Assembly: GCA_016867835.1 (NCBI GenBank)
Contig: VGIQ01000002.1
Location: 2,953 to 66,952 of the forward strand
Length of the DNA: 64,000 bases
Direction of reading: 5' to 3'
Origin: Calditrichota bacterium
Lineage (GTDB): Bacteria > Electryoneota > AABM5-125-24 > Hatepunaeales > Hatepunaeaceae
Shown: positions 4,140 through 64,000 of the stretch, piece by piece
Layout: each line of letters opens with the position of its first letter
How positions within the stretch are numbered: position 1 is the first letter of the stretch
Made by a program: the position numbers and the translations under genes
The notes under the pieces: generated by a model
What the model was told of the DNA's origin: nothing
Database searches by the model: none
What the model saw: the letters and a program-made list of their open reading frames with translations, nothing else

Positions 4140-5465
4140 TCACCGGCGAAGAGAGCGTCTTACCAGCAGCCAATCTTCTCGTCGAGCGACCAGAACATCG
4201 CGCGCCGTAACTCCCGATTCTCGCAGGAAGAAATAGAGGAACATACTCCCGGTAAGAAAATGCGTTCCTGTCGATGCCAGGGCGGCGCCCATTATACCGA
4301 GTCGCGGAATTAGGATTAGTCCGGCAGCGACATTCAGAACAAATGTAATGACCGAGACAATGACCGAATAATGAGGTTTCCCCCGACCGATCAGATCCCC
4401 GGCGAGCATCGTGGCAAGTGTCAGGACAACCGCGCCGGGAACAAGCACTGCCAGCGGCTTGTATGCCGGTATGAATGCCGGGCCAAAGAGAAGGTATATC
4501 AAAGGGTAGCCGAATATCACCAAGGCGCATCCGGCAAGCAAGGTCAAAGCAAAGCCAATGCGCACCAGGAGAGGAGTCATTTGGTTGCCGGCATCGTCGC
4601 TCCGCTGCGCCACATACGGCAGAAGCACCTGTCCTATCGCCGCTGGAAGATAACGAAGACCGACCAGAATCGCCGCAGCCAGCGAATAATAGCCCACCTC
4701 AGAGCGGGACATAAAGAACGCGATGATAAACAGGTCGAAGCGCGATCGCAGGAATGAAAGGACATTGCTCAAATGAAACGATATCCCGAAACGCAGCATA
4801 GCGAGCAGAGATGGAATATCAAGGCGAAGTCCGCCGACCTCCCGGATGGAATTGGTGAGCAATAAAATACCGGCCGTCAGAATCGCCAGTCCCCAAAGCG
4901 CGATTGCAGTTTCAACAGAGGCCCCGCCGGCAATCCAAACCAAGGCCATGGTGGACACAAAGATCATTTCCCGCGAGACCATAATGAGATTCATCTTGAA
5001 AATGCGGTCGAAGCCTATCAGCATACTGTTTCCGTATTCGAGCAGCAACAGCGGGAGAACAGTCACCGTCGCCATCATCAGCAACCGGTCGGATACGAGA
5101 GGTATGAACCGGTCCCGCACCGTCGGCATAAAAAGCATCGCCAGCGCCGTCCATAAAAAGCCCCATAGCACCGTAAAAAAAAGACTATTACCGGCTACCG
5201 AAGAGCGATTCACGGGCTGCCGTCCGATGAAGTAACTGCATGCCGATCCATAGGATAAATGCCCGATATTGGCAAGGGACATAGCTACCAGCATGGTCAG
5301 CGAGAGCAGTCCCTTGCCGTCCGGACCGAGGGCTCGAGCGATGACGATCTGCCCGACCAACCCGACGGCAAAGGTCCCGAATTGCCCCCCCAGAGCGCTG
5401 ATCAGTTTACTACGCAGTCTGTTGGTGGCAATTCCCGACGCTCTTTCGACTGGTGAGTCCGTCAA
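4140..5465 (-). CDS. Polysaccharide biosynthesis protein / Wzx-like flippase (MOP superfamily).
   Basis: 441 aa with ~12 predicted hydrophobic helices. The N-terminal SKLISALGGQFGTFAVGLVGQIVIARALGPDGKG is typical of PST-family flippases. It is adjacent to the Wzy-like and Wzz-like genes. Confidence 0.6.
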   Translation of the reverse strand: MTDSPVERASGIATNRLRSKLISALGGQFGTFAVGLVGQIVIARALGPDGKGLLSLTMLVAMSLANIGHLSYGSACSYFIGRQPVNRSSVAGNSLFFTVLWGFLWTALAMLFMPTVRDRFIPLVSDRLLMMATVTVLPLLLLEYGNSMLIGFDRIFKMNLIMVSREMIFVSTMALVWIAGGASVETAIALWGLAILTAGILLLTNSIREVGGLRLDIPSLLAMLRFGISFHLSNVLSFLRSRFDLFIIAFFMSRSEVGYYSLAAAILVGLRYLPAAIGQVLLPYVAQRSDDAGNQMTPLLVRIGFALTLLAGCALVIFGYPLIYLLFGPAFIPAYKPLAVLVPGAVVLTLATMLAGDLIGRGKPHYSVIVSVITFVLNVAAGLILIPRLGIMGAALASTGTHFLTGSMFLYFFLRESGVTARDVLVARREDWLLVRRSLRR

Positions 5466-55261: not shown

Positions 55262-57706
55262 TCAGCGCATCAAAACGGCCTTTACGGTGCGGGAATGGGA
55301 GCCGGTTTGAAGGCGGAGGAAAAAGATGCCGGAGGGAAGTGTGAAAGTGCTAAAGTGCGAAAGTGCGAAAGTATGGCTCCCGGGGGATAGCGGGCCGTCG
55401 TGGAGGCGGAGGATTTCCCGGCCGTCTATCGCGTAGAGGCCGATCCGGACGGGCATGAGACCCCCCACCTGCGCTCTTGGAGGGCGGACATTCTTGTCCG
55501 CCCTTAGGGCAGGCAAAAATGCCTGCCCTCCAAGATCAACTGTCACCGTCGCCTTATCGTTAAACGGATTAGGAGCAATCGTAAGCGAGAGTGGCGCGTC
55601 ATCCCCGCTTCCCCCCTCGTCATCCCCGCTTCCCGCCTCGTCATCCCCGCGCAAGCGGGGATCCAGTCCAGCACTTAGAGAATGGACATAGACAACCCAA
55701 ACTTGCACATCCTCCTCCCATTCTTCCTCGCCGACCTGCTCCCGCGCATACCCACTTACTATGTATCTGCCCGTGTCTTGAAATGAAATGGACAAAGTGG
55801 ACTCGATGGACATAGTGTCGGCTTCATTCAGCGTCCACCAGAACTGAATCGAGTCGTTGTTGGCATTGAAGGGAGTTAATTCGAAGGTCGTTTCCTGACG
55901 AGGCTCGAGGGAGATTTCAGCGAGATTCGGCTCATAAGCCCGAATGACTCCCCGCACCTGAATCGCCCATTGGACGGAATCGGCCGGCACGGGATCGACG
56001 TTCGGATCGAAGACCTTTGCTTTCAGAGCATAGCCACCCGTCCGGTCGAACGCGTAGGACCGGATTCCGATCCGGTCATCCCCTGCCACTTCCTCCCACC
56101 TCACCGCCGCTGAGTCGTAAATCATCCACTCATATCGCAGATTCTCCATATCTCCGATGTAGGCAATGGAGTCGAGGGCGAAGTCGATCTCGCTGTTGCG
56201 CTGAACGGTGAGGGATAGATGCTCAGGTGTGTACTCCACTATCAAAAGTTCCATAACAGCAACATTCCATCCAATGACGCGTGATTGCTCGCCGGAAGTA
56301 ACCCGGCACTCTATTCGTGTTTGTCCCAGTTCATCAAATTGAATGGTTGCTGATGAATCGCGATCGATCACCTGCCCAGCAGCATTCCGCCATAGATAGG
56401 ATATGGCCGCACCATTCTGGTTTCGCGCCTGCACAGCAAACGTCTGGCGCGTGCCAATCAACAGCGACAGCGTCGTATCGCGCGGTGACCATGAAATGAA
56501 CTGGGGGCCAATGACTTCGCGCTCTAATTTGATCAGCAGCCCGTTCTTGCCCTCGTTGTTGCGCTCAAAGGTGGCGGTGCCGGCACCATAGAGCGACCCA
56601 TCGCTGCCCTGAATGACCCCGCCGAAAGAATGTGACCGCCCTACCCCCTGTCCAAACCCGTTTTCGGGAAGCAGAAAGTATATTTCCTTCCAAAGTTCGT
56701 CGCCGTTGGGGCCGATACGGACTACTGCCGGGTGATGGGTGTCGCCTTGATCGCGCGGGAACCAGAAAAATCCCGCCAATATAAAGCCGCCTTCGGCTAC
56801 CCGTGCTGCCGCATTACATTGATCCATACCCCATAGTTGGCGATTGGCAAAACTGTAGCGGCGTCCCCACATTAGGTCGCCGTTGCTATCGACCAGAACC
56901 GCAGCCATATCTATTGGCTCCGGCTGTCCTCTATTATCGCCGGTAAAACCGGCGATCAGGAACTGGCCCTGGCCGGTGGAAGTCATGGTCATAGATAAGT
57001 TACTGACGTCAATCCGATAGGAATTCCACCAGATCACTTCGCCATTATCGGATCTTATTTTGAAGGCCAAGAACTGGTATCCGGGCACATTTTCAATAAG
57101 CACATCACCTCCGACAATCACTCCATCTTCGGCTTCTCGCAGGCCCACAAGATGATGTCGTGTTCCTAACGAATACTCCCGCTCCCAGATCAACTCTCCT
57201 TCACCATCGATACAAATGACCACGCCAAGATAATCGCCATTTTCAATACTGGTTATGAGAAACCGGCCATCCTTCAATTCAATTATTGCGGTTCCTCGTC
57301 CTCGACGAAATGTTCGAAACCAGATCTCCTCACCATCAGAATCTACCCGCATAACTGCAATACGATTACTGCGATCTCTATTTTCACCTATGCCAGCGCA
57401 GGCTAGGAAGTCGCCATTATCCGCCTCGATGACACTTGCCAAACTTCTCAAACCGCCCTCCGCCTCATATTGTCTATCCCATATAATTTGCCCATCATCG
57501 TCGAGTCTAAGCAATCGGCCGCAACGAACGCTGTTTCCATTGGTCGCATATCCGCTCATTATCAGACCATCGTTTGGCACAGAATAGACATCCAAAATGC
57601 CGTCATCTCCTCCCGAGTCATACATCCGCATCCATAAGGGATTTGGCTGACCAAAAGAGGCGAATGCCGTCAGGATTACAACGAATATTGAGGTATGGAC
57701 TTTCAT
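55262..57706 (-). CDS. Secreted SBBP-type beta-propeller plus Ig/PKD-like domain protein with a T9SS C-terminal domain carrying an internal insertion.
   Basis: The ATG at 57704-57706 gives the MKVHTSIFVVILTAFASFGQ signal peptide. The track ORF starts 120 nt upstream. Repeats of DG..(I/L)..GYT.......D..IW..Y type (DGLIMSGYATNGNS...DDDGQIIWDRQY; DGRFLITSIENGD...GEGELIWEREY; ...) form the propeller. Ig-like domains follow, then an acidic GSGDDE linker. The CTD APNPFNDKATVTVDL-[GGQAFLPALRADKNVRPPRAQVGGLMP]-VRIGLYAIDGREILRLHDG...GIFFLRLQTGSHSRTVKAVLMR contains a ~27-aa insertion relative to the other CTDs in this window. Confidence 0.65.
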   Translation of the reverse strand: MKVHTSIFVVILTAFASFGQPNPLWMRMYDSGGDDGILDVYSVPNDGLIMSGYATNGNSVRCGRLLRLDDDGQIIWDRQYEAEGGLRSLASVIEADNGDFLACAGIGENRDRSNRIAVMRVDSDGEEIWFRTFRRGRGTAIIELKDGRFLITSIENGDYLGVVICIDGEGELIWEREYSLGTRHHLVGLREAEDGVIVGGDVLIENVPGYQFLAFKIRSDNGEVIWWNSYRIDVSNLSMTMTSTGQGQFLIAGFTGDNRGQPEPIDMAAVLVDSNGDLMWGRRYSFANRQLWGMDQCNAAARVAEGGFILAGFFWFPRDQGDTHHPAVVRIGPNGDELWKEIYFLLPENGFGQGVGRSHSFGGVIQGSDGSLYGAGTATFERNNEGKNGLLIKLEREVIGPQFISWSPRDTTLSLLIGTRQTFAVQARNQNGAAISYLWRNAAGQVIDRDSSATIQFDELGQTRIECRVTSGEQSRVIGWNVAVMELLIVEYTPEHLSLTVQRNSEIDFALDSIAYIGDMENLRYEWMIYDSAAVRWEEVAGDDRIGIRSYAFDRTGGYALKAKVFDPNVDPVPADSVQWAIQVRGVIRAYEPNLAEISLEPRQETTFELTPFNANNDSIQFWWTLNEADTMSIESTLSISFQDTGRYIVSGYAREQVGEEEWEEDVQVWVVYVHSLSAGLDPRLRGDDEAGSGDDEGGSGDDAPLSLTIAPNPFNDKATVTVDLGGQAFLPALRADKNVRPPRAQVGGLMPVRIGLYAIDGREILRLHDGPLSPGSHTFALSHFSTFTLPSGIFFLRLQTGSHSRTVKAVLMR
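55474..55534. repeat. Compound palindromic (REP/MITE-like) element lying in frame inside the T9SS CTD coding sequence of 55262..57706.
   Basis: The outer stem is CTTGGAGGG...CCCTCCAAG (55476-55484 / 55525-55533). It encloses two hairpins: GGGCGGACA-ttct-TGTCCGCCC and AGGGCAGGCA-aaaa-TGCCTGCCCT. The GGGCAGG/CCTGCCC stem type also forms the terminator at 55128-55152. Confidence 0.55.
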
Positions 57707-57776
57707 GATGGTGATGTGCTTGATTGTGCAGTCGGGCGGGCGGGGGGCGCCCTTGGCTCCCCGCCCGCCTGTTTGC

Positions 57777-58199
57777 TTACTGACGTTCTTCGACTTTCCA
57801 GTCGAATGTCTGCGGATCCGTAGCATCGTAGGTCTGCAAATCGCCTTCTGGCTCGAAGCCGGTATAGAGACCGGAGGCGGTCAGCCGTACTTGCCAGCGG
57901 TACGAAACAGATTGGAAGTCAGCGTAGTAATCAGCCTCGATCTGAGTTGCATAGACCCAGTCGCCCCAAACACCTGGCGCGACTTCTATACGAAACTGGA
58001 CCGAGGCGTCATACTGGCCGACCCACTCTTCGTCAATTAACTCGAGAATTCGAGTCTGCAGCCGAACTGCCTGAGCATCGGATGGTGCTAGCAGTCCTAC
58101 AATAAGCAGAATTGCCGAAGCAATGAATGTGATGCGACGTAGTGTCACTGTGGAATCTCCGTTGATTGTCGTTGATGAGATTGCCTCGCCTGTCTGCAA
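57777..58199 (-). CDS. Small secreted protein of unknown function.
   Basis: 140 aa. The hydrophobic segment ITFIASAILLIVGLLAPSDAQA looks like a signal peptide. The start may be an internal GTG. I recognised no known domain. It lies 71 nt upstream of the SBBP propeller gene. Confidence 0.35.
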   Translation of the reverse strand: MQTGEAISSTTINGDSTVTLRRITFIASAILLIVGLLAPSDAQAVRLQTRILELIDEEWVGQYDASVQFRIEVAPGVWGDWVYATQIEADYYADFQSVSYRWQVRLTASGLYTGFEPEGDLQTYDATDPQTFDWKVEERQ

Positions 58200-58572
58200 C
58201 AGGCTCGCGATGACGTTGCGTCATCGCCGGATCAAACGACTACCTTACGGCGGAGCGCGGCTTCGCTGCCGTCTTAGGCGTGAGCGGCATCGCCCTCCCC
58301 CGAGTCAGGTGGAATGGGGAAGTCGAAGTTGTCGATGATGATGACGGGATCGGGATCCCGTCCAAAGCAGGGAAGGAAGAGCATCGGCGTCGGACTTAGG
58401 AATCTGCCTTAAGGAACAGTGATAGCGTCAGGTCTTAAGCAATCGTCGAAGTCCGCAAGCGGGCAGTGCAGGTCAGGATAAGATAAGCAGCAACGTGTCG
58501 ATTTGCAAGAAGATACGAGAGGAGGTTGACGTTGTTGGAGCCGGGCTAATTGGTGCGGTCGCTCCTTGCTCC

Positions 58573-59784
58573 TCAGCGCATCGCCACATCCTGCCCGCGC
58601 AAGGCCTCCATTCCAAACTGGAGCGCACTCAACAGGTGCCGTTCTTCCCGCTCGTCACCGCGCTTGCGAGCCTCGGCGATCATCGTCCGCAGACGTTCCA
58701 CAAAGAGGCCTTCGGCGGTGCGGGGATTGGGATCTGAGTTGTCGTCGAGCGAAAAGTCGGCGGTCACGGCGCTGTCGTCCACCCTCAAGTGCCAGCAAGC
58801 GCTCTGGAGAAAGTCGTCGGAGAGGTCGATCCGGCTGCCGGGGGGATAGCGACCTTCCAACTCGACGAGGCAGATGTCCTCGCGGCGGACATGGGCGTCC
58901 TGAAGCGACTTCTCAATTCGTTCCTGAACGGCTGCAGAATGGGCTGCGCCATCGAGCGATACCACAAGCCTAACGATGCGGCGGGTATCGAGTTCCCGGA
59001 AGCGAAGTTCGTCCGGCACAACGCCGCCCGGTCGAACGAGACCGACCAGGCAGCCGCGCTCGCCCGGCTCGTCGATGGTTAAGGCAGCGGCAGCCCCCGG
59101 ATAAGCCGCCCGCACCCGGCCTTGCGAGTCGTGGATGACGGAATGACTGTGATAATGCCCTAACGCAGCATAGTCGAAGTTGTGACGGAGAAGTTCCTCG
59201 TCGGAAAAGGGCAGCGTCCGCTTCTTGCCGGGAGGCAGGCTCCCGCCGTCGCGCGAGCCATGCAGAACCGCAATATGGAGCGCTCCATCGGGCCGGTCGA
59301 TGTTTTCGGCCAACCGACGGCTCTGCACCAACTGGTTGCTGTGAAACGCCAGGCCGCTGAAGACGACGCCCTGTAGTTCCGGAAACGTCCGGGGGGTGAA
59401 GTCGTAGTCGCGAAAAATGTGGATATTGTCCGGCCACCTGTGGCCGGTGCGCGCTTCGAGGAGGCTGTCGCTGTAGTAACTGGCGGGGTGATAATAGTCG
59501 TGATTGCCGGGCGCGATGACGACCGGCAGTCCGGCGCGGCCGAGATAATCGACGACGACCAGGGCTTCCTCCTGGCCGGAGCCTTCCTCCCAGAGGTCTC
59601 CGGCGATGAGGATTACCTGGACCGATTCCTCGCGCGCGATCTCGACCGTTCGCCGCAGAACCTCGCGCAGTTCACGGGCTCGCACCTGAGCCTTATCGTA
59701 AGGAAGGCGCAGGCGCCCGCCGACGGTGTCGGCGCCGAGGTGCAGATCGGCAAGGTGCAGGAATTTCAGGGAGTCAAGGGGCAT
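58573..59784 (-). CDS. SbcD/Mre11-family metallophosphoesterase nuclease (YhaO/SbcF-like).
   Basis: MPLDSLKFLHLADLHLG is calcineurin-like phosphoesterase motif I. ILIAGDLWE is motif II. VIAPGNHD is motif III. The phosphoesterase core is complete, including AVLHGS and LGHYH. Confidence 0.8.
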   Translation of the reverse strand: MPLDSLKFLHLADLHLGADTVGGRLRLPYDKAQVRARELREVLRRTVEIAREESVQVILIAGDLWEEGSGQEEALVVVDYLGRAGLPVVIAPGNHDYYHPASYYSDSLLEARTGHRWPDNIHIFRDYDFTPRTFPELQGVVFSGLAFHSNQLVQSRRLAENIDRPDGALHIAVLHGSRDGGSLPPGKKRTLPFSDEELLRHNFDYAALGHYHSHSVIHDSQGRVRAAYPGAAAALTIDEPGERGCLVGLVRPGGVVPDELRFRELDTRRIVRLVVSLDGAAHSAAVQERIEKSLQDAHVRREDICLVELEGRYPPGSRIDLSDDFLQSACWHLRVDDSAVTADFSLDDNSDPNPRTAEGLFVERLRTMIAEARKRGDEREERHLLSALQFGMEALRGQDVAMR

Positions 59785-59804
59785 AAGGGATGATTTACCG
59801 AAAG

Positions 59805-60560
59805 TTAGACTCCAAATACTTCAGAATAGAGCTGCTTTCGAGCTTGATCTTGTTCCAATTCGGCATAAATCTCGGTGATTTTTTCATAAGATAGAAAATT
59901 GACATTTGGACCAATGATGCGATACGCCTCCTTTCGTTTCTCAGATTCGAACTTTCTAAAACGATCTTGCGGTGCGACAACATTGAACTGAGTCCTAAAA
60001 TAGCGCAACTCGTCGAATTTGAGAAGAGCAGACCGAAAATCCGTTGAATGTTCGACTTCAAATATACTAATTGGATAAAGTATTGGAGGTGGATTCGAAC
60101 GAGCATCTTGGAACCAGATTACATCAAAAAATCGCGCCGACCTATCGATGATTTCATCATAAGTGAATCGAGGGCACTCGCGAACGGTGCATATATTAGC
60201 CAGTGATTTGCCATTGAATTTCTTAGACTTATCATTCGAGTATGTCTTGAACCCTTTAAACTCACCCAGTTCGAGGAGCATTCCCTGAATGTGAGTGTGT
60301 TGAAATTCCTTAAATGCAATTTGTTCGACTGGCACTGGCTCTGACACAAACGAATGCTTGGCAAGTGCATACACTCCTACTCCAATTCGCTTAAATCTTG
60401 GATCGCGCTGAACGCGCTCTTGTATAGTCTTATCTGGAGTTTTGCCTGTAAGCGAACGATATTTGAGGAATTCTTGATAGATTAATCGCAAAGATGCAAA
60501 TCCGCCATTTTCTAGCATCACTCGTTCAATGGCATCTGAGTAACTGATAGTGTTTTTCAC
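59805..60560 (-). CDS. Low-GC gene encoding an N-terminal HARE-HTH-like winged helix fused to a putative nuclease-like (PD-(D/E)xK-like?) domain.
   Basis: GTG start 2 nt after the SbcC-like stop, with a GGAGG RBS. SYSDAIERVMLENGGFASLRLIYQEFLKY...DPRFKRIGVGVYALAKH matches the HARE-HTH pattern ending F.R.G.G.Y.L. The C-terminal half has FDVIWFQD...ILYPISIFEVEHSTDFRSALLKF as a candidate catalytic beta-strand pair. Gene GC is ~42% versus ~65% in the flanks. Confidence 0.45.
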   Translation of the reverse strand: MKNTISYSDAIERVMLENGGFASLRLIYQEFLKYRSLTGKTPDKTIQERVQRDPRFKRIGVGVYALAKHSFVSEPVPVEQIAFKEFQHTHIQGMLLELGEFKGFKTYSNDKSKKFNGKSLANICTVRECPRFTYDEIIDRSARFFDVIWFQDARSNPPPILYPISIFEVEHSTDFRSALLKFDELRYFRTQFNVVAPQDRFRKFESEKRKEAYRIIGPNVNFLSYEKITEIYAELEQDQARKQLYSEVFGV

Positions 60561-60562
60561 GG

Positions 60563-63448
60563 TTACCCCTCCACCCCTTTGAGTTCGATCCTTCTCACCC
60601 GATCCTCAAACAGTCCGCCCATCTGTTCCCCCAGCCAGCGGTGACGCTCCTCGTGGCAGGACATCACCAGCACCTGATGCTGGCGCGAGAGTGAGTTGAG
60701 AAAGAAGCGCATTCCGGAGATGAACTTATCGTCATCGACCGCGGCGAGCGGCTCGTCGAGCACCACCGGCATCGGCCCGACCGCCGAACGGGAAAGGTAG
60801 CGGGCTATGCCGAGCCGGGCCGCAAGGAAGACCTCGTCGCGCGCCCCGGTTGAGAGGACGGCTTCGACCTCGTGAGATGAATGGCGCTTGCCGGTCGCCG
60901 TATCGAGGACCGTAAAGGTGAGATGCTCGTCGAATTTCAGTTCGCTGTAACGGGGGTTCAGCGCGACCAGAAAAGGCGCGGCCTCTTCCGACAGCGCCGT
61001 CGCCCAGTTTCGATAGACCTCGCGCGAGATATCCGATAGCACTTGCAGCGCGGTCTCGACGTCCGAACGAAAGGTCTCTATGCGCTCGATCCGGTCTTCC
61101 CAATCCGCTGCCTTGCGTTTAAGGATACCGTAATTCCCTTCGTAACGGTCGAGGACTGTGACCACTGCGCGTTCGAGCGATCGTCGCTCCTCTTCGAGAC
61201 TCTTGGTATGTCGGTTAGCATTATCGGCCGCTTCCTGATAGAACTCGCGCGAATGCGGCGGAACCGGCGGAACGTTGTCGAATTTGGCGCGGAGTTGCGA
61301 AAGACGCTCGCGTTTGGCAGCCAGATCGACCTCCGGAAGTTGTTCACGCTCGATACGAGGCTGCAGTTCGGTCCGGACGGTGCGCAGGCGGTGATGCTTG
61401 TCGAGTGCCGACTTAAACGTGGCGACGGCTTCGGCCGGCGGCAGGGATGGGTCGATACTGCCGAGGCGGAGGATTTCCTCAAAGAGCGCCCGATTCGCTG
61501 AGAGGTCCGATTTCAGCCGCTCGATGTCGCGCTCGATTTCGTCGCGTCGTGCTTTGGCGGTCTTGAATTCCTCCGACAGGCGAACCGCCTTGCGGTAGCG
61601 CTCGAGCAACGATTCGGCTGCCGCCTTGAGAGCGCTTCGTTCGGGAAAGGTGAGGCCGGCCCGGTCGAAGAACTTGCGCAGGAGATCGGCGGCGGCGGAT
61701 GCCTCACCGGAGGCGCGCTCGACAGCATTCTCAGCCGTCAACAGCGGTTCGACGGCATCGGACATCTGATCGTAGAACAGATAGTCGTTCATTAACCCGG
61801 TGCCGTCAGGCTCGCCCAGGCGAACGGCGAGGTCGGTCAGGTCGCGCGTTATCTGTTCGAGGCGGGATCCGGACTCCTCCTCTTCGGTCATCGCTTCGCC
61901 GAGGTCTTCGTTCAGTTTACGCAGGGCAGCAGCATCGGCGCCTCCGCCCGAAGCACCCCGGGCGATAGCGCCCGCCGCACCGAAGAAGACCCCTAGGCCG
62001 GCCAGAACCTGTCCGAGCCATTCGCCCTTGGTGAGCAGAATGAGTGCACCGCCCGTAAGGACGGTAATCGCTGCCAGCAGGAAGAACGTCCGGGCGGTCG
62101 CGGCGACGCGCTTCTGACGGGTAATGATAAGGCTTCGCTCGCGCTCGACCCACTCTCGCCGGGTGCGCTGTTCGCGAAACTTGCCGTCCACCTCGGCATA
62201 GAGAGCTCGAAAGGACTCGACGAAGCGCTTTTCGTCAGCAGTTAAACTACCGAATAGAGCCTTCAGCCGGGTGAACTGCTCGCGGTCGAGACCTCGTTCG
62301 TCGAGGCTTGACCGGAGGCGGTTCAATTCCCTATCGGCATCGTTCAACCGTTCGAGGCGGTCACCCAACCGCGAGACGGCGCTATCGAGTTCCCTTAGGT
62401 CGCTCTCGCCAACCCCGGCGAGCGTGCGTTCGTCCTGCAGCGCCTTCTCCACCTTCTCAAGCGGTGCGATGCCTTCGCTCGCGAGCCTCTCTTCGGCGCG
62501 GACGGCATCGGCGGATTTTTGAGCGATGAGACCTTCAAGGCTGATGAGTTGGTCGGCGCGGGCAGCCGGGAATTGCTCGAAAAGCGTTAACTCGCTCGCC
62601 TCGACGGCAAGCCGGGCCGCCTCGGCGGCGAGGGCATCCTGCTTTTCGAGGAGTAGCGACGATTCGCGAATCTCGGCCGCGTCGCCGTTTTTCAGAGCCT
62701 CGGTTTGCGTCTGCCGGAGCGTTTCAAGCGACGTCTCGATCTCGCGCATGCGGGCGATTTGCGGCTCTATGGACGCGCGCTGATGGTCCAGGGTGGCGAT
62801 TTCGCGGCGGACGCTGTCGAGTTCCTCTTGGAGCCGTTTGAGGGCAGTTTCAACCTTTACGGACGGGCTGTTGCGGGTGATGTCAGGAATGCGGTCGAGG
62901 GCGCCGCGAAGCCGTTCGATGGCCTGACCGGAAGTGGTGCCGCCTTCGATGGAGGTCGCGACCTGCTGGATGTGATGAGTCAGGTCGCCCGGCTCGGTTA
63001 GGGTAAGTTGCTCGTCCTGCCGGAGGTAGAACGATTTGAGAAACGACTCCACCGAGAGGCCGAGCAGTTTTTCGCCGATTTGGTAGCGTCCCTTGCCGAT
63101 GTGAAATTCGTCGGCGAGATCGCGGCCGGAATCGCGGTCGATAAGGCGAACATCACCGGAAGCGAAGTCGCGCTCGATGCGCCAACGCTGGGTGCCAAGA
63201 TAAAAGTCGAGTTCGACGCCGAACTCGTCGGGGTCAGTCCATGGTGTTACTTGACGCTTATGGGGACGTTTACTGCTCGTTTTCCCCATATGTTCCTCGA
63301 TGCCGTAGAAGGCGGCGAGGATTGCGGCGACAAGGGTGGACTTGCCGGCTTCGTTGTCAGCGACGGCGAGGTTGAGCCGGTCGGGGGCGAAGTCGATCCG
63401 GGTGCGCAGGCAGCCGAAGCCGCGGATGTTCAGGGATTCAAGGTGCAT
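60563..63448 (-). CDS. SbcC/Rad50-family AAA ATPase (YhaN/SbcE-like, 961 aa).
   Basis: MHLESLNIRGFGCLRT...AVADNEAGKSTLVAAILAAFYG carries Walker A. About 700 aa of coiled coil follow. The C-terminus has VVLDEPLAAVDDDKFISGMRFFLNSLSRQHQVLVMSCHEE with Walker B and the D-loop. Its length and architecture match Bacillus YhaN-type partners of Mre11-like YhaO. Confidence 0.8.
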   Translation of the reverse strand: MHLESLNIRGFGCLRTRIDFAPDRLNLAVADNEAGKSTLVAAILAAFYGIEEHMGKTSSKRPHKRQVTPWTDPDEFGVELDFYLGTQRWRIERDFASGDVRLIDRDSGRDLADEFHIGKGRYQIGEKLLGLSVESFLKSFYLRQDEQLTLTEPGDLTHHIQQVATSIEGGTTSGQAIERLRGALDRIPDITRNSPSVKVETALKRLQEELDSVRREIATLDHQRASIEPQIARMREIETSLETLRQTQTEALKNGDAAEIRESSLLLEKQDALAAEAARLAVEASELTLFEQFPAARADQLISLEGLIAQKSADAVRAEERLASEGIAPLEKVEKALQDERTLAGVGESDLRELDSAVSRLGDRLERLNDADRELNRLRSSLDERGLDREQFTRLKALFGSLTADEKRFVESFRALYAEVDGKFREQRTRREWVERERSLIITRQKRVAATARTFFLLAAITVLTGGALILLTKGEWLGQVLAGLGVFFGAAGAIARGASGGGADAAALRKLNEDLGEAMTEEEESGSRLEQITRDLTDLAVRLGEPDGTGLMNDYLFYDQMSDAVEPLLTAENAVERASGEASAAADLLRKFFDRAGLTFPERSALKAAAESLLERYRKAVRLSEEFKTAKARRDEIERDIERLKSDLSANRALFEEILRLGSIDPSLPPAEAVATFKSALDKHHRLRTVRTELQPRIEREQLPEVDLAAKRERLSQLRAKFDNVPPVPPHSREFYQEAADNANRHTKSLEEERRSLERAVVTVLDRYEGNYGILKRKAADWEDRIERIETFRSDVETALQVLSDISREVYRNWATALSEEAAPFLVALNPRYSELKFDEHLTFTVLDTATGKRHSSHEVEAVLSTGARDEVFLAARLGIARYLSRSAVGPMPVVLDEPLAAVDDDKFISGMRFFLNSLSRQHQVLVMSCHEERHRWLGEQMGGLFEDRVRRIELKGVEG

Positions 63449-63460
63449 TTAGGGCGGTGC

Positions 63461-64000
63461 CTATCGGGATAATGGCCAATTACCATAATCGCGCAGTTCA
63501 TCATCCGTGAGTTCATCAGGTGCGACTAACCTGTAGTGCTTCTCATCGGAAATAGCCGGACCGTCATCGTCCACTACAAAAGTGAACAGAGCAATTAAAT
63601 TACTCTCGATGAACTGAGCTGCGATAGCGCTACATATCAAACCTGGGTATTTTTGTTCGCAAAGGGCTATATCCTGCTCTATTTGAACAATACCCAGTTG
63701 GTCTGAGCCTCCTTTCGCTTGCACTGGGAAGACATAATGCGCCCCGCGCTTGTCAACCCCCACGTATATCTCGTCAGTCTCTACTTGTCCAATACCCTCG
63801 ACTGTGGTTCTGAGGTGGCTTTGAAGGGAGTAGCAAGCAACGCCTGTGAATACATCAATTAGCCTGTTATACCGTATCTTGGTAAGGAGAGCCTGTTCAT
63901 CACCTATCGAATACCTCGCTACTATTCCCGGAGTAGAGTCAGGAATCTTGGTTACCGCAAGTGATATATTCGGCGTAATTCTCGGGGCAGAGGTGAGCGC
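63461..64000 (-). CDS. C-terminal part of a low-GC gene of unknown function (possible nuclease-like fold). The N-terminus lies beyond the window.
   Basis: The minus-strand frame is open from the window end down to the stop at ~63461. It reads ...IPDSTPGIVARYSIGDEQALLTKIRYNRLIDVFTGVACYSLQSHLRTTVEGIGQVETDEIYVGVDKRGAHYVFPVQAKGG...GNWPLSR. The track lists only the internal 63461..63763 piece. GC is ~48%. I have no confident family assignment. Confidence 0.35.
   Translation of the reverse strand, partial: ALTSAPRITPNISLAVTKIPDSTPGIVARYSIGDEQALLTKIRYNRLIDVFTGVACYSLQSHLRTTVEGIGQVETDEIYVGVDKRGAHYVFPVQAKGGSDQLGIVQIEQDIALCEQKYPGLICSAIAAQFIESNLIALFTFVVDDDGPAISDEKHYRLVAPDELTDDELRDYGNWPLSR

Follow-up and report, generated by a model that had tools for sequence, protein, structure and literature searches.

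A low-GC gene for a probable stand-alone restriction-type nuclease between the SbcC-like and SbcD-like genes of a Calditrichota bacterium

A foreign gene at an SbcC-like/SbcD-like junction

The window analysed here, a stretch of 64,000 nucleotides (nt) from a contig of a Calditrichota bacterium, carries on its minus strand a gene for an SbcC/Rad50-like ATPase and a gene for an SbcD/Mre11-like metallophosphoesterase, and between these two host genes lies a third gene of clearly different base composition. The upstream gene (60563..63448, minus strand; 961 amino acids (aa)) matches the AAA_23, SbcC_Walker_B and Rad50 models and has a G+C content (GC) of 0.62. The downstream gene (58573..59784, minus strand; 403 aa) matches Metallophos (3.7e-14) and TIGR00619 sbcd (7.8e-14). 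Both are located outside the insert. The gene in between (59805..60560, minus strand) starts with GTG, ends with the stop codon TAA at 59805-59807 and encodes a protein of 251 aa, in which a winged helix of probable HARE-HTH type is followed by a nuclease domain of the NmeDI_C type. Our data make it very probable that this gene is an acquired cassette for a stand-alone restriction-type nuclease.

In 200-nt windows, GC is 0.39-0.445 within the open reading frame (ORF) versus 0.59-0.68 on either side. Windows of 756 bp have a mean GC of 0.608 over the 64 kb (standard deviation 0.039), and the inserted gene lies about 5 standard deviations lower. The lowest of these windows (0.409) starts at position 59801, 4 nt from the end of the ORF, which confirms the claim of the first-pass annotation that the GC island corresponds to exactly one ORF. 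At higher resolution (40-nt windows) the edges of the drop are seen at 59740-59800 and 60540-60600. GC at codon positions 1, 2 and 3 is 0.52, 0.34 and 0.37 for the inserted gene, compared to 0.70, 0.44 and 0.73 for the SbcC-like gene and 0.73, 0.43 and 0.75 for the SbcD-like gene.

A second, independent mark of foreign origin is provided by the tetranucleotide AGCT, which is avoided by the host and present at unconstrained frequency in the insert. The 64 kb contain seven AGCT sites, and the first 55 kb have 3 versus about 193 expected from base composition. Of the seven sites, two (59830 and 59841) are located inside the 790-bp insert, for which 0.06 would be expected at the host rate (Poisson P about 0.002, our own calculation from the site counts).

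The junctions are tightly packed. The SbcC-like gene stops with TAA at 60563-60565, followed by the two nucleotides CC and then by the GTG of the inserted gene at 60560. A Shine-Dalgarno sequence, GGAGG (60568..60572, minus strand), was recognized from the sequence within the last codons of the SbcC-like gene, 7 nt ahead of the GTG. Both the 2-nt gap and the GGAGG, on which the first-pass annotation had based its view of an ORF packed closely behind the SbcC-like stop, are therefore present, and the N-termini of 39 homologues agree with the GTG start. On the other side, the stop codon of the inserted gene is followed by a 20-nt spacer and the ATG of the SbcD-like gene at 59784.

In order to find relatives of the operon, species-representative genomes were scanned with the SbcD-like protein. 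Two relatives have the same operon, L010 (50% identity) and L011 (46%). In both of them an SbcC-like ORF of 954-955 aa overlaps the SbcD-like ORF by 4 nt (…TCATGA… and …ACATGA…, respectively), with nothing in between. The SbcC-like protein of the window is 3 residues longer at its C-terminus (…IELKGVEG versus …IEIRS and …IELTT), while protein alignment puts the start residue of the SbcD-like protein at the same position as in L010 and L011. As the gene is absent at the ATGA overlap of both relatives, about 790 bp were inserted at a translationally coupled junction. From the empty junction and the protein alignments, the inserted DNA approximately extends over 59785..60574 (minus strand). It begins with the last 3-4 codons and the stop codon of the SbcC-like gene, continues with the ORF and ends with the 20-nt spacer in front of the SbcD-like ATG. 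Thus, a single-gene cassette is inserted at the former stop/start overlap of the SbcC-like/SbcD-like pair. The insert brought or created a new stop for the SbcC-like gene together with its own GGAGG ribosome-binding site. No promoter-like or terminator-like sites were found on the gene's strand of the insert, and for this reason the gene is expected to be co-transcribed with the operon and may be translated from its own GGAGG.

Direct or inverted repeats were not found at the boundaries of the insert, and the insert contains no mobility gene. A transposon, insertion sequence or integron cassette was rejected: boundary repeats and a shared flank motif are lacking, and the 3' spacer, with its 20 nt, leaves no room for an attC site. 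A polymorphic insertion was also rejected, since all four samples with an identical SbcD-like protein (4/4) carry the inserted gene as well. With its place between conserved genes, an empty site in (distant) relatives and neither repeats nor a transposase, the cassette has the layout of a minimal mobile element.

Contig L117 is identical to the window, continues past the window end and shows the full operon. The order is two Band7 genes (GC 0.58-0.59), genes for a methylase and a restriction endonuclease (REase) (0.47), the SbcC-like gene (0.62), the 251-aa gene (0.41) and the SbcD-like gene (0.635). In L010 and L011 the place of the Band7 pair is taken by ORFs of 335/334 and 281/283 aa, which were matched to Band7 by size and position, and the SbcC-like ORF follows directly, after a gap of 28 nt in L010 and about 220 nt in L011. 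The second insert, placed behind the second Band7 gene and ahead of the SbcC-like gene, is a complete type II restriction-modification (R-M) pair, with both genes at GC 0.47. It encodes an N6_N4 methylase (442 aa) and an REase (267 aa; PADLOC PDLC03404, E=6e-114), is located at 63461-64000 of the window on the minus strand, where it runs off the window end, and at 2219-4343 of L117. The operon hence carries two separate foreign insertions that differ in composition, and the second, complete R-M insertion marks the operon as an integration hot spot.

Domains and predicted fold of the inserted protein

A protein identical to that of the window (P0001, 100%) is labelled hypothetical in a Calditrichaeota metagenome-assembled genome. 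The Pfam family PF27126 (NmeDI_C; PF27126.1) is precomputed for P0001 and for 120 of the 120 homologues listed. In addition, positions 177-325 of the PADLOC model PDLC03534 (REase_II, 351 positions) match residues 87-233 with E=5e-5. Together with the domain model obtained by AlphaFold2 (AF2), these matches define the nuclease domain as codons 78-251 (59808..60329, minus strand). A search of NCBIfam with the 251-aa protein gave nothing, and the best match in PHROGs had only E=0.22. In the PDB, no real relative was retrieved by sequence, whether the query was the protein, the family profile or a profile of the C-terminal domain; a low-complexity repeat and a viral glycoprotein appeared at E about 0.5.

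The AF2 model of the whole protein is confident (pLDDT 92.3) and consists of a winged helix, a long helix and an alpha/beta domain; the C-terminal domain modelled separately has a pLDDT of 92.8. The structure prediction that the first-pass annotation had proposed thus yielded a clear two-domain model, whereas its matches to nuclease folds (see below) were not significant. The winged helix (codons 1-70; 60351..60560, minus strand) has helices (H) and strands (E) in the order H7-17, E21-23, H24-31, H42-52, E56-58 and E63-66, which is the H-S-H-H-S-S topology. Its third helix comprises residues 42-52 (PDKTIQERVQR), and the wing is formed by RFKRIGVGVYAL. The invariance of the helix sequence TIQERVQR in the close subfamily is partly an artefact of the search, in which this peptide served as scan pattern; in an unbiased set of 57 diverse representatives the helix mostly reads IRRIVQ.

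Assignment of the winged helix to the HARE-HTH type is based on its predicted topology, on the homologues and on Foldseek. The Pfam family PF05066 (HARE-HTH) was matched by 18 of 40 homologues (best E 2e-4), in all cases under the gathering score of 25.9 bits, and no other Pfam family was matched by more than one of the 40 homologues. A homologue from Halobacterium scores 18.5 bits, and longer relatives (about 400 aa) that share the nuclease domain match PF05066 at 4e-19. The wing motif of HARE-HTH domains is D-x-RF…G-x-W/Y-x-L, and the window protein carries the motif DPRFKRIGVGVYAL. Foldseek matched the winged helix to forkhead domains, to 8x6g_E (chain E of a Staphylococcus RNA polymerase complex) and to the winged helix of DpnI (4kyw_A, probability 0.66). 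The HARE-HTH N-terminus suggested by the first-pass annotation is therefore backed by the homologues and the model topology, while the window protein by itself stays below detection by PF05066 at E<=1.

In the nuclease domain, H88, E97, D146, E168, E170 and K181 are invariant in 40 homologues. The 57 unbiased representatives all retain H88 and D146, and at least 90% of them retain E170. All 42 family-invariant residues (42/42) are present in the window protein. Based on conservation, D146, E168, E170 and K181 are the putative catalytic residues (codons 146-181; 60018..60125, minus strand), and the invariant H88 lies upstream of them. Foldseek matches of the nuclease domain were FokI (E=0.04), MUS81-EME1 (0.056), EcoT38I (0.12, probability 0.82), Avs3 and the R2 endonuclease, none of them significant (E 0.04-0.3). 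The PD-(D/E)xK nuclease superfamily is defined by an alpha/beta core around a mixed central sheet, with an acidic residue where strand 2 begins and (D/E)xK on strand 3. The motif seen here is D146…E168-x-E170, with K181 on the next helix. A D…E-x-E motif with a helix lysine is a plausible PD-(D/E)xK variant, and we regard this fold as likely. Of the earlier claim of a PD-(D/E)xK C-terminus, the restriction nuclease domain itself is borne out by PF27126 and PADLOC; the PD-(D/E)xK fold is consistent with the data and unproven. The encoded nuclease is predicted to be active.

The nuclease family and the putative action of the cassette

Word-indexed searches retrieved 489 homologues of the window protein, which are about 240 aa long, about 50% identical and distributed over many phyla, and 1,308 cluster representatives reached E<=1e-3 in an exhaustive profile search. 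There are thus at least 1,300 sequence clusters with the NmeDI_C nuclease domain, none of which has a solved structure. We examined 85 loci of the family, 80 from metagenomes and 5 from long contigs; in the metagenome loci ORF calling was simple and the motif test for methylases crude. Of 64 contigs of more than 3 kb, 59 show a lower GC in the homologue than in its flanks; the mean difference is 7.4 points. The dip is limited to the gene in L004 and reaches 600-700 bp upstream in L001 and L005. The neighbours of the homologues vary (Nth, RecN, SpoU, GatB, PheS/T, methylase fragments and others) and are mostly unrelated to DNA repair, with a few homologues adjoining repair genes. No flank motif is common to 78 loci. 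Homologues were found neither in IMG/VR nor in 50,697 phage records, and a viral origin was rejected on this basis. For 24 loci the sequence extends at least 2.5 kb to either side of the gene, and in about 20 of these the crude motif search detected no methylase-like ORF over this distance; three annotated plasmid homologues that were inspected are all solitary. The ratio of nonsynonymous to synonymous substitution rates (dN/dS) of the nuclease is 0.07-0.12 in loci with a truncated neighbouring methylase, and purifying selection acts along the whole protein. These results demonstrate a large, horizontally moving nuclease family under purifying selection.

This distribution also bears on the suggestion of the first-pass annotation that the gene might be a homing-type element. 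A homing-type selfish gene would encode a nuclease that cuts the empty SbcC/SbcD junction (…ATCGAACTCAAA/ATGA…) or another specific site, so that repair copies the gene in. A lone nuclease ORF that lacks a promoter and repeats and sits precisely at the boundary of two conserved genes would suit such an element, and the discordant divergence of the nuclease and a short neighbouring methylase ORF (the U ORF) in L041 and L052, described below, suggests that the nuclease gene was exchanged alone. However, the insertion sites differ from genome to genome, with homologues at many unrelated loci and unconserved flanks; the family is absent from viral collections; the gene is not embedded in an intron or intein, and homing enzymes are not among the known relatives of the family. 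We regard homing as very unlikely, and the suggestion was not upheld.

Selection and conservation argue in a similar way against an inactive remnant of a decayed R-M system, or a domesticated protein that uses its winged helix for DNA binding only, e.g., as a regulator of the SbcCD-like operon. No cognate methylase is found nearby, a few homologues do adjoin DNA-repair genes, and Drg, a solitary winged-helix nuclease, was proposed to influence gene expression (PMC4269198). The ORF is nevertheless of full length, it retains each of the invariant residues including the putative catalytic ones, and the whole protein is under purifying selection in the family. Furthermore, GC of 0.37 at third codon positions in a host with 0.73 argues for a recent arrival, and most homologues have neighbours unrelated to repair. 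A remnant or domesticated protein is therefore highly improbable.

The nuclease domain is combined with different partners. In proteins of about 400 aa, NmeDI_C forms the C-terminal part behind HARE-HTH and EVE domains (P0189, P0193) or EVE alone (P0204), and in P0220 (360 aa) it is fused to sigma-70 regions 2 and 4. The N-terminal domain of the family is also paired with HNH nucleases (P0236, P0250).

In 44 of the 85 loci, homology to a PDLC03351-type methylase (PADLOC, N6_N4) is located directly beside the nuclease gene. Complete methylase genes, which overlap the nuclease gene by 8 nt, occur in 12 loci, all of which belong to one clade (clade A). The usual order in clade A, seen in about 20 related loci, is N6_N4 methylase, nuclease, a Zn-ribbon ORF of 96 aa and a D12 (Dam-like) methylase. 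This cassette, which encodes no further nuclease, lies between housekeeping genes (e.g., UvrC and GatB in L096). Truncated methylases beside an intact nuclease are found in about 30 other loci, and the loss always concerns the nuclease-proximal side: either the N-terminal 106-136 residues are left upstream or a C-terminal piece is left downstream. The upstream remnant ORF (L001, L040, L041, L045-L048, L052-L055, L057, L059 and L063) has 94-150 aa, corresponds to about 120 N-terminal residues of the PDLC03351-type methylase without the catalytic domain, and shows a dN/dS of 0.12-0.31. Between L041 and L052 this short ORF is 94% identical and the nuclease 74%. An REase similar to NlaIII/IceA is encoded downstream of the nuclease in 7 loci. 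The context tracks the nuclease phylogeny, in which the window protein clusters with L037 and L038, two loci with 3' methylase remnants downstream. For the methylases and nucleases associated with the family, NCBIfam names gave no specificity.

Two further observations concern these neighbourhoods. In P0132 (354 aa) a methylase fragment is fused in frame to a full-length family member. In the clade A loci L079 (3096-3833) and L110 (3545-4282), a second, unrelated protein of 245 aa with a HARE-HTH-like N-terminus and a PD-(D/E)xK-like C-terminus (…DVGVDISAIKENKFFGIQVKT…) is encoded just past the D12 methylase.

Intact nucleases beside methylases that lack the nuclease-proximal part are an unexpected element of the family. 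An intact nuclease next to a truncated methylase is the reverse of the usual order of R-M decay.

How, then, could a nuclease be tolerated without its methylase? The explanation that we favour is a recently acquired stand-alone endonuclease cassette in which the HARE-HTH winged helix of 70 residues reads the DNA and places the enzyme, and the metal-dependent NmeDI-type nuclease at the C-terminus (D146, E168, E170, K181) cuts nearby. The host genome would be spared without a linked methyltransferase by the enzyme's need for a base modification that the host lacks. To this explanation as a whole we assign a probability of roughly 0.6. Its last step, modification dependence as in type IV enzymes, has slightly less than even odds if the cassette itself is accepted; it is suggested indirectly by the solitary genes, by purifying selection in the absence of a methylase, and by the fusions to reader domains. 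As in type IV enzymes, a reader domain is fused to a nuclease domain and no cognate methylase is linked. The arrangement typical of type II systems, a nuclease gene linked to that of its cognate methylase, occurs in clade A and is not seen in the window, where the gene is flanked by the SbcC-like and SbcD-like genes. The solitary type IV-like nuclease of the first-pass annotation accordingly stands as to its solitary position and agrees with the reading that we favour, while the dependence on modification is inferred.

Several points weigh against this explanation. The empty site is known from two distant relatives (46-50% identity). A Pfam search with the 251-aa protein gave no match even at E<=1, HARE-HTH included, and the best Foldseek matches, although PD-(D/E)xK-type nucleases, are non-significant. 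R.NmeDI, the founder of the NmeDI_C nuclease family, is a genuine type II enzyme (PMC2095814). According to Iyer et al., prokaryotic nucleases fused to HARE-HTH are restriction enzymes of N6A-modifying R-M systems (PMC4738411), which fits clade A, and by analogy clade A itself looks like a DpnII-style type II system with two methylases, not like a type IV enzyme. No characterised protein with the HARE-HTH and NmeDI_C architecture was found in the literature searched. Finally, the methylase neighbourhood of the inserted gene was judged from the window and its extension in L117, which is compatible with an unlinked methylase.

Some of these points are shared by the main alternative, in which the gene encodes an orphan type II enzyme that cuts unmethylated sequence, with the host protected by a methyltransferase encoded elsewhere. 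The compact cassette of clade A, in which the 8-nt overlap joins the methylase to the only nuclease, speaks for this alternative, as do the PDLC03351 homology in 44 of the 85 loci and the nuclease domain shared with R.NmeDI. Moreover, restriction enzymes can be neutralised by a solitary methylase that shares their specificity (PMC2993543). In contrast, about 30 of the 44 adjacent methylases are truncated while the nuclease is intact with a dN/dS of about 0.1, which is opposite to the usual decay of type II systems, and fusions of the same nuclease domain to EVE and HARE-HTH point to the reading of modifications. We consider the orphan type II enzyme possible, if rather doubtful. In a less likely variant, protection would come from the N6_N4 methylase of the R-M pair in the same operon, 3.7 kb upstream. 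This methylase, however, belongs to another family (best match PDLC03224) and its GC is 0.47 versus 0.41, and both differences indicate that it arrived separately with its own REase. The 442-aa methylase was also rejected as the usual partner of the family, since similarity to that partner is limited to the generic motif I region.

A more general and quite speculative view is that nucleases with HARE-HTH and NmeDI_C are modification-dependent and spread as bare cassettes of one gene, in direct conflict with a particular family of N6-adenine methyltransferases. The loci with truncated methylases would then be scars of the replacement of a methylase by a nuclease, a general bacterial counterpart of dam/drg. 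If this is true, the window copy would be the same replacement cassette landed at an operon junction, and elsewhere the N-terminal methylase fragment would be kept under selection. The pairing of nuclease and truncated methylase could be a tractable case of conflict between nucleases and methylation systems. If the family is modification-dependent, the specificity of such a compact reader-plus-cutter protein (240 aa) could also be useful.

We also considered whether palindrome avoidance reveals a recognition site. AGCT was rejected as target of the inserted nuclease, because the gene itself has two AGCT sites and the window five more. In the pooled contigs of family carriers, the ratio of observed to expected frequency (O/E) is 0.51 for GATC and 0.47 for CATG, versus 0.76 and 0.89 in 27 control loci. 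Very low values for GATC (0.00-0.25) and/or CATG (0.03-0.15) were found in the flanks of L040, L054, L070, L052, L008, L088, L004/L056 and L089. This poverty is not universal, GATC having an O/E of 0.93 in the window, and the attempt to derive a recognition site in this way was dropped.

Other features of the operon and comparison with known systems

The AGCT sites of the window are located at 5283, 17826, 49021, 59830, 59841, 62204 and 63617 (Markov O/E 0.04), and 3 of the 7 fall in the two foreign inserts. Other palindromes in the window are CTAG with 6 sites (O/E 0.08), GTAC with 15 sites (0.17), CATG (0.47) and GATC, which is normal. This extreme avoidance of some 4-bp palindromes suggests long exposure to restriction of the AluI and RsaI type.

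The SbcC-like ATPase (60563-63448) has two adjoining hydrophobic, transmembrane-like segments in the middle of its coiled coil (…FFLLAAITVLTGGALILL…LGQVLAGLGVFFGAAGAIA…). Its best PADLOC match is LmuB (2e-20), and the genes preceding it in L117 are of the Band7/SPFH type. The SbcC-like/SbcD-like pair may be a membrane-associated SbcCD-like or defence module instead of a canonical SbcCD. Three independent Logan assemblies (L117, L118 and L119) all stop 83 nt past the stop codon of the SbcD-like gene, at about position 58490 of the window, and this common end suggests repeat or strain-variable sequence just downstream of the operon. An ORF of 854 aa (55262-57826, minus strand) lies 0.7 kb past the SbcD-like gene and differs from the genes downstream of SbcD in L010 and L011. 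Its GC (0.45-0.57) is below the window mean, GC skew is strongly negative at about 57000-57500, and it contains a short acidic repeat (GDDEAGSGDDEGGSGDD).

Among characterised enzymes, R.NmeDI of Neisseria meningitidis, a type II enzyme of 351 aa that cuts on both sides of RCCGGY (PMC2095814), shares its C-terminal nuclease domain with the window protein. Its N-terminal part of about 175 residues is replaced in the window protein by the HARE-HTH winged helix, and nmeDIR overlaps a C5-methylase gene, whereas the window gene has no linked cognate methylase. Fusions of HARE-HTH to nucleases in prokaryotic R-M systems were described by Aravind & Iyer 2012 (as cited in PMC4738411 and PMC11037411). 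As far as this work is represented in the two citing papers, the combination of HARE-HTH with a restriction-type nuclease and the association of the family with N6_N4 and D12 methylases match these fusions; the combination with NmeDI_C and the mostly solitary occurrence are not described in the literature searched, which includes that work through those papers. The HARE-HTH membership of the window protein is also weak compared to these fusions.

Small winged-helix readers combined with a nuclease are also known from DpnI and from the type IV enzymes of Helbrecht et al. 2024, which depend on N6-methyladenine; HARE-HTH may sense cytosine instead of adenine modification (PMC11037411). The window gene resembles them in its solitary position and in the rarity of methylase genes nearby. 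The domain order is reversed with respect to DpnI, as the winged helix comes first in the window protein, which belongs to another nuclease family and has no detectable similarity in sequence to any solved structure. Fusion of a nuclease to an EVE/PUA or winged-helix reader, with methylases rarely alongside, is the hallmark of modification-dependent restriction enzymes (PMC6765204, PMC7897488, PMC11037411). The fusions of NmeDI_C to EVE, or to HARE-HTH and EVE, follow the same modular logic of reader plus cutter, whereas the window protein has no EVE domain and characterised EVE enzymes use HNH.

With respect to the genetic arrangement, the closest parallel is the dam-replacing gene drg of Neisseria (Drg/NmeBII), a methyl-dependent nuclease gene that replaces dam and is a minimal mobile element (PMC4269198, PMC516771). 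Like the window gene, drg is a solitary nuclease cassette of low GC (40.5% versus 52% for the genome) between conserved genes and without transposon-like repeats, and the displaced methylase has a parallel in the truncated methylases beside many family members. Drg is DpnI-like and belongs to another protein family, and the window cassette displaces nothing. Minimal mobile elements of Neisseria are exchanged via flanking homology, and the window cassette is likened to them by layout alone. R-M genes that insert into operon-like clusters are known from the work of the Kobayashi group (PMC2993543). The window shows the same situation, a restriction-type gene inside a co-directional cluster, with a complete methylase and REase pair one junction upstream. 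It differs in that the nuclease gene is inserted alone, at a 4-nt overlap and without target duplication. For this genome the cassette is an ordinary find, one more horizontally acquired restriction-type gene, and among the systems compared it is a new, uncharacterised member of an already known kind, the horizontally acquired defence or selfish genes.

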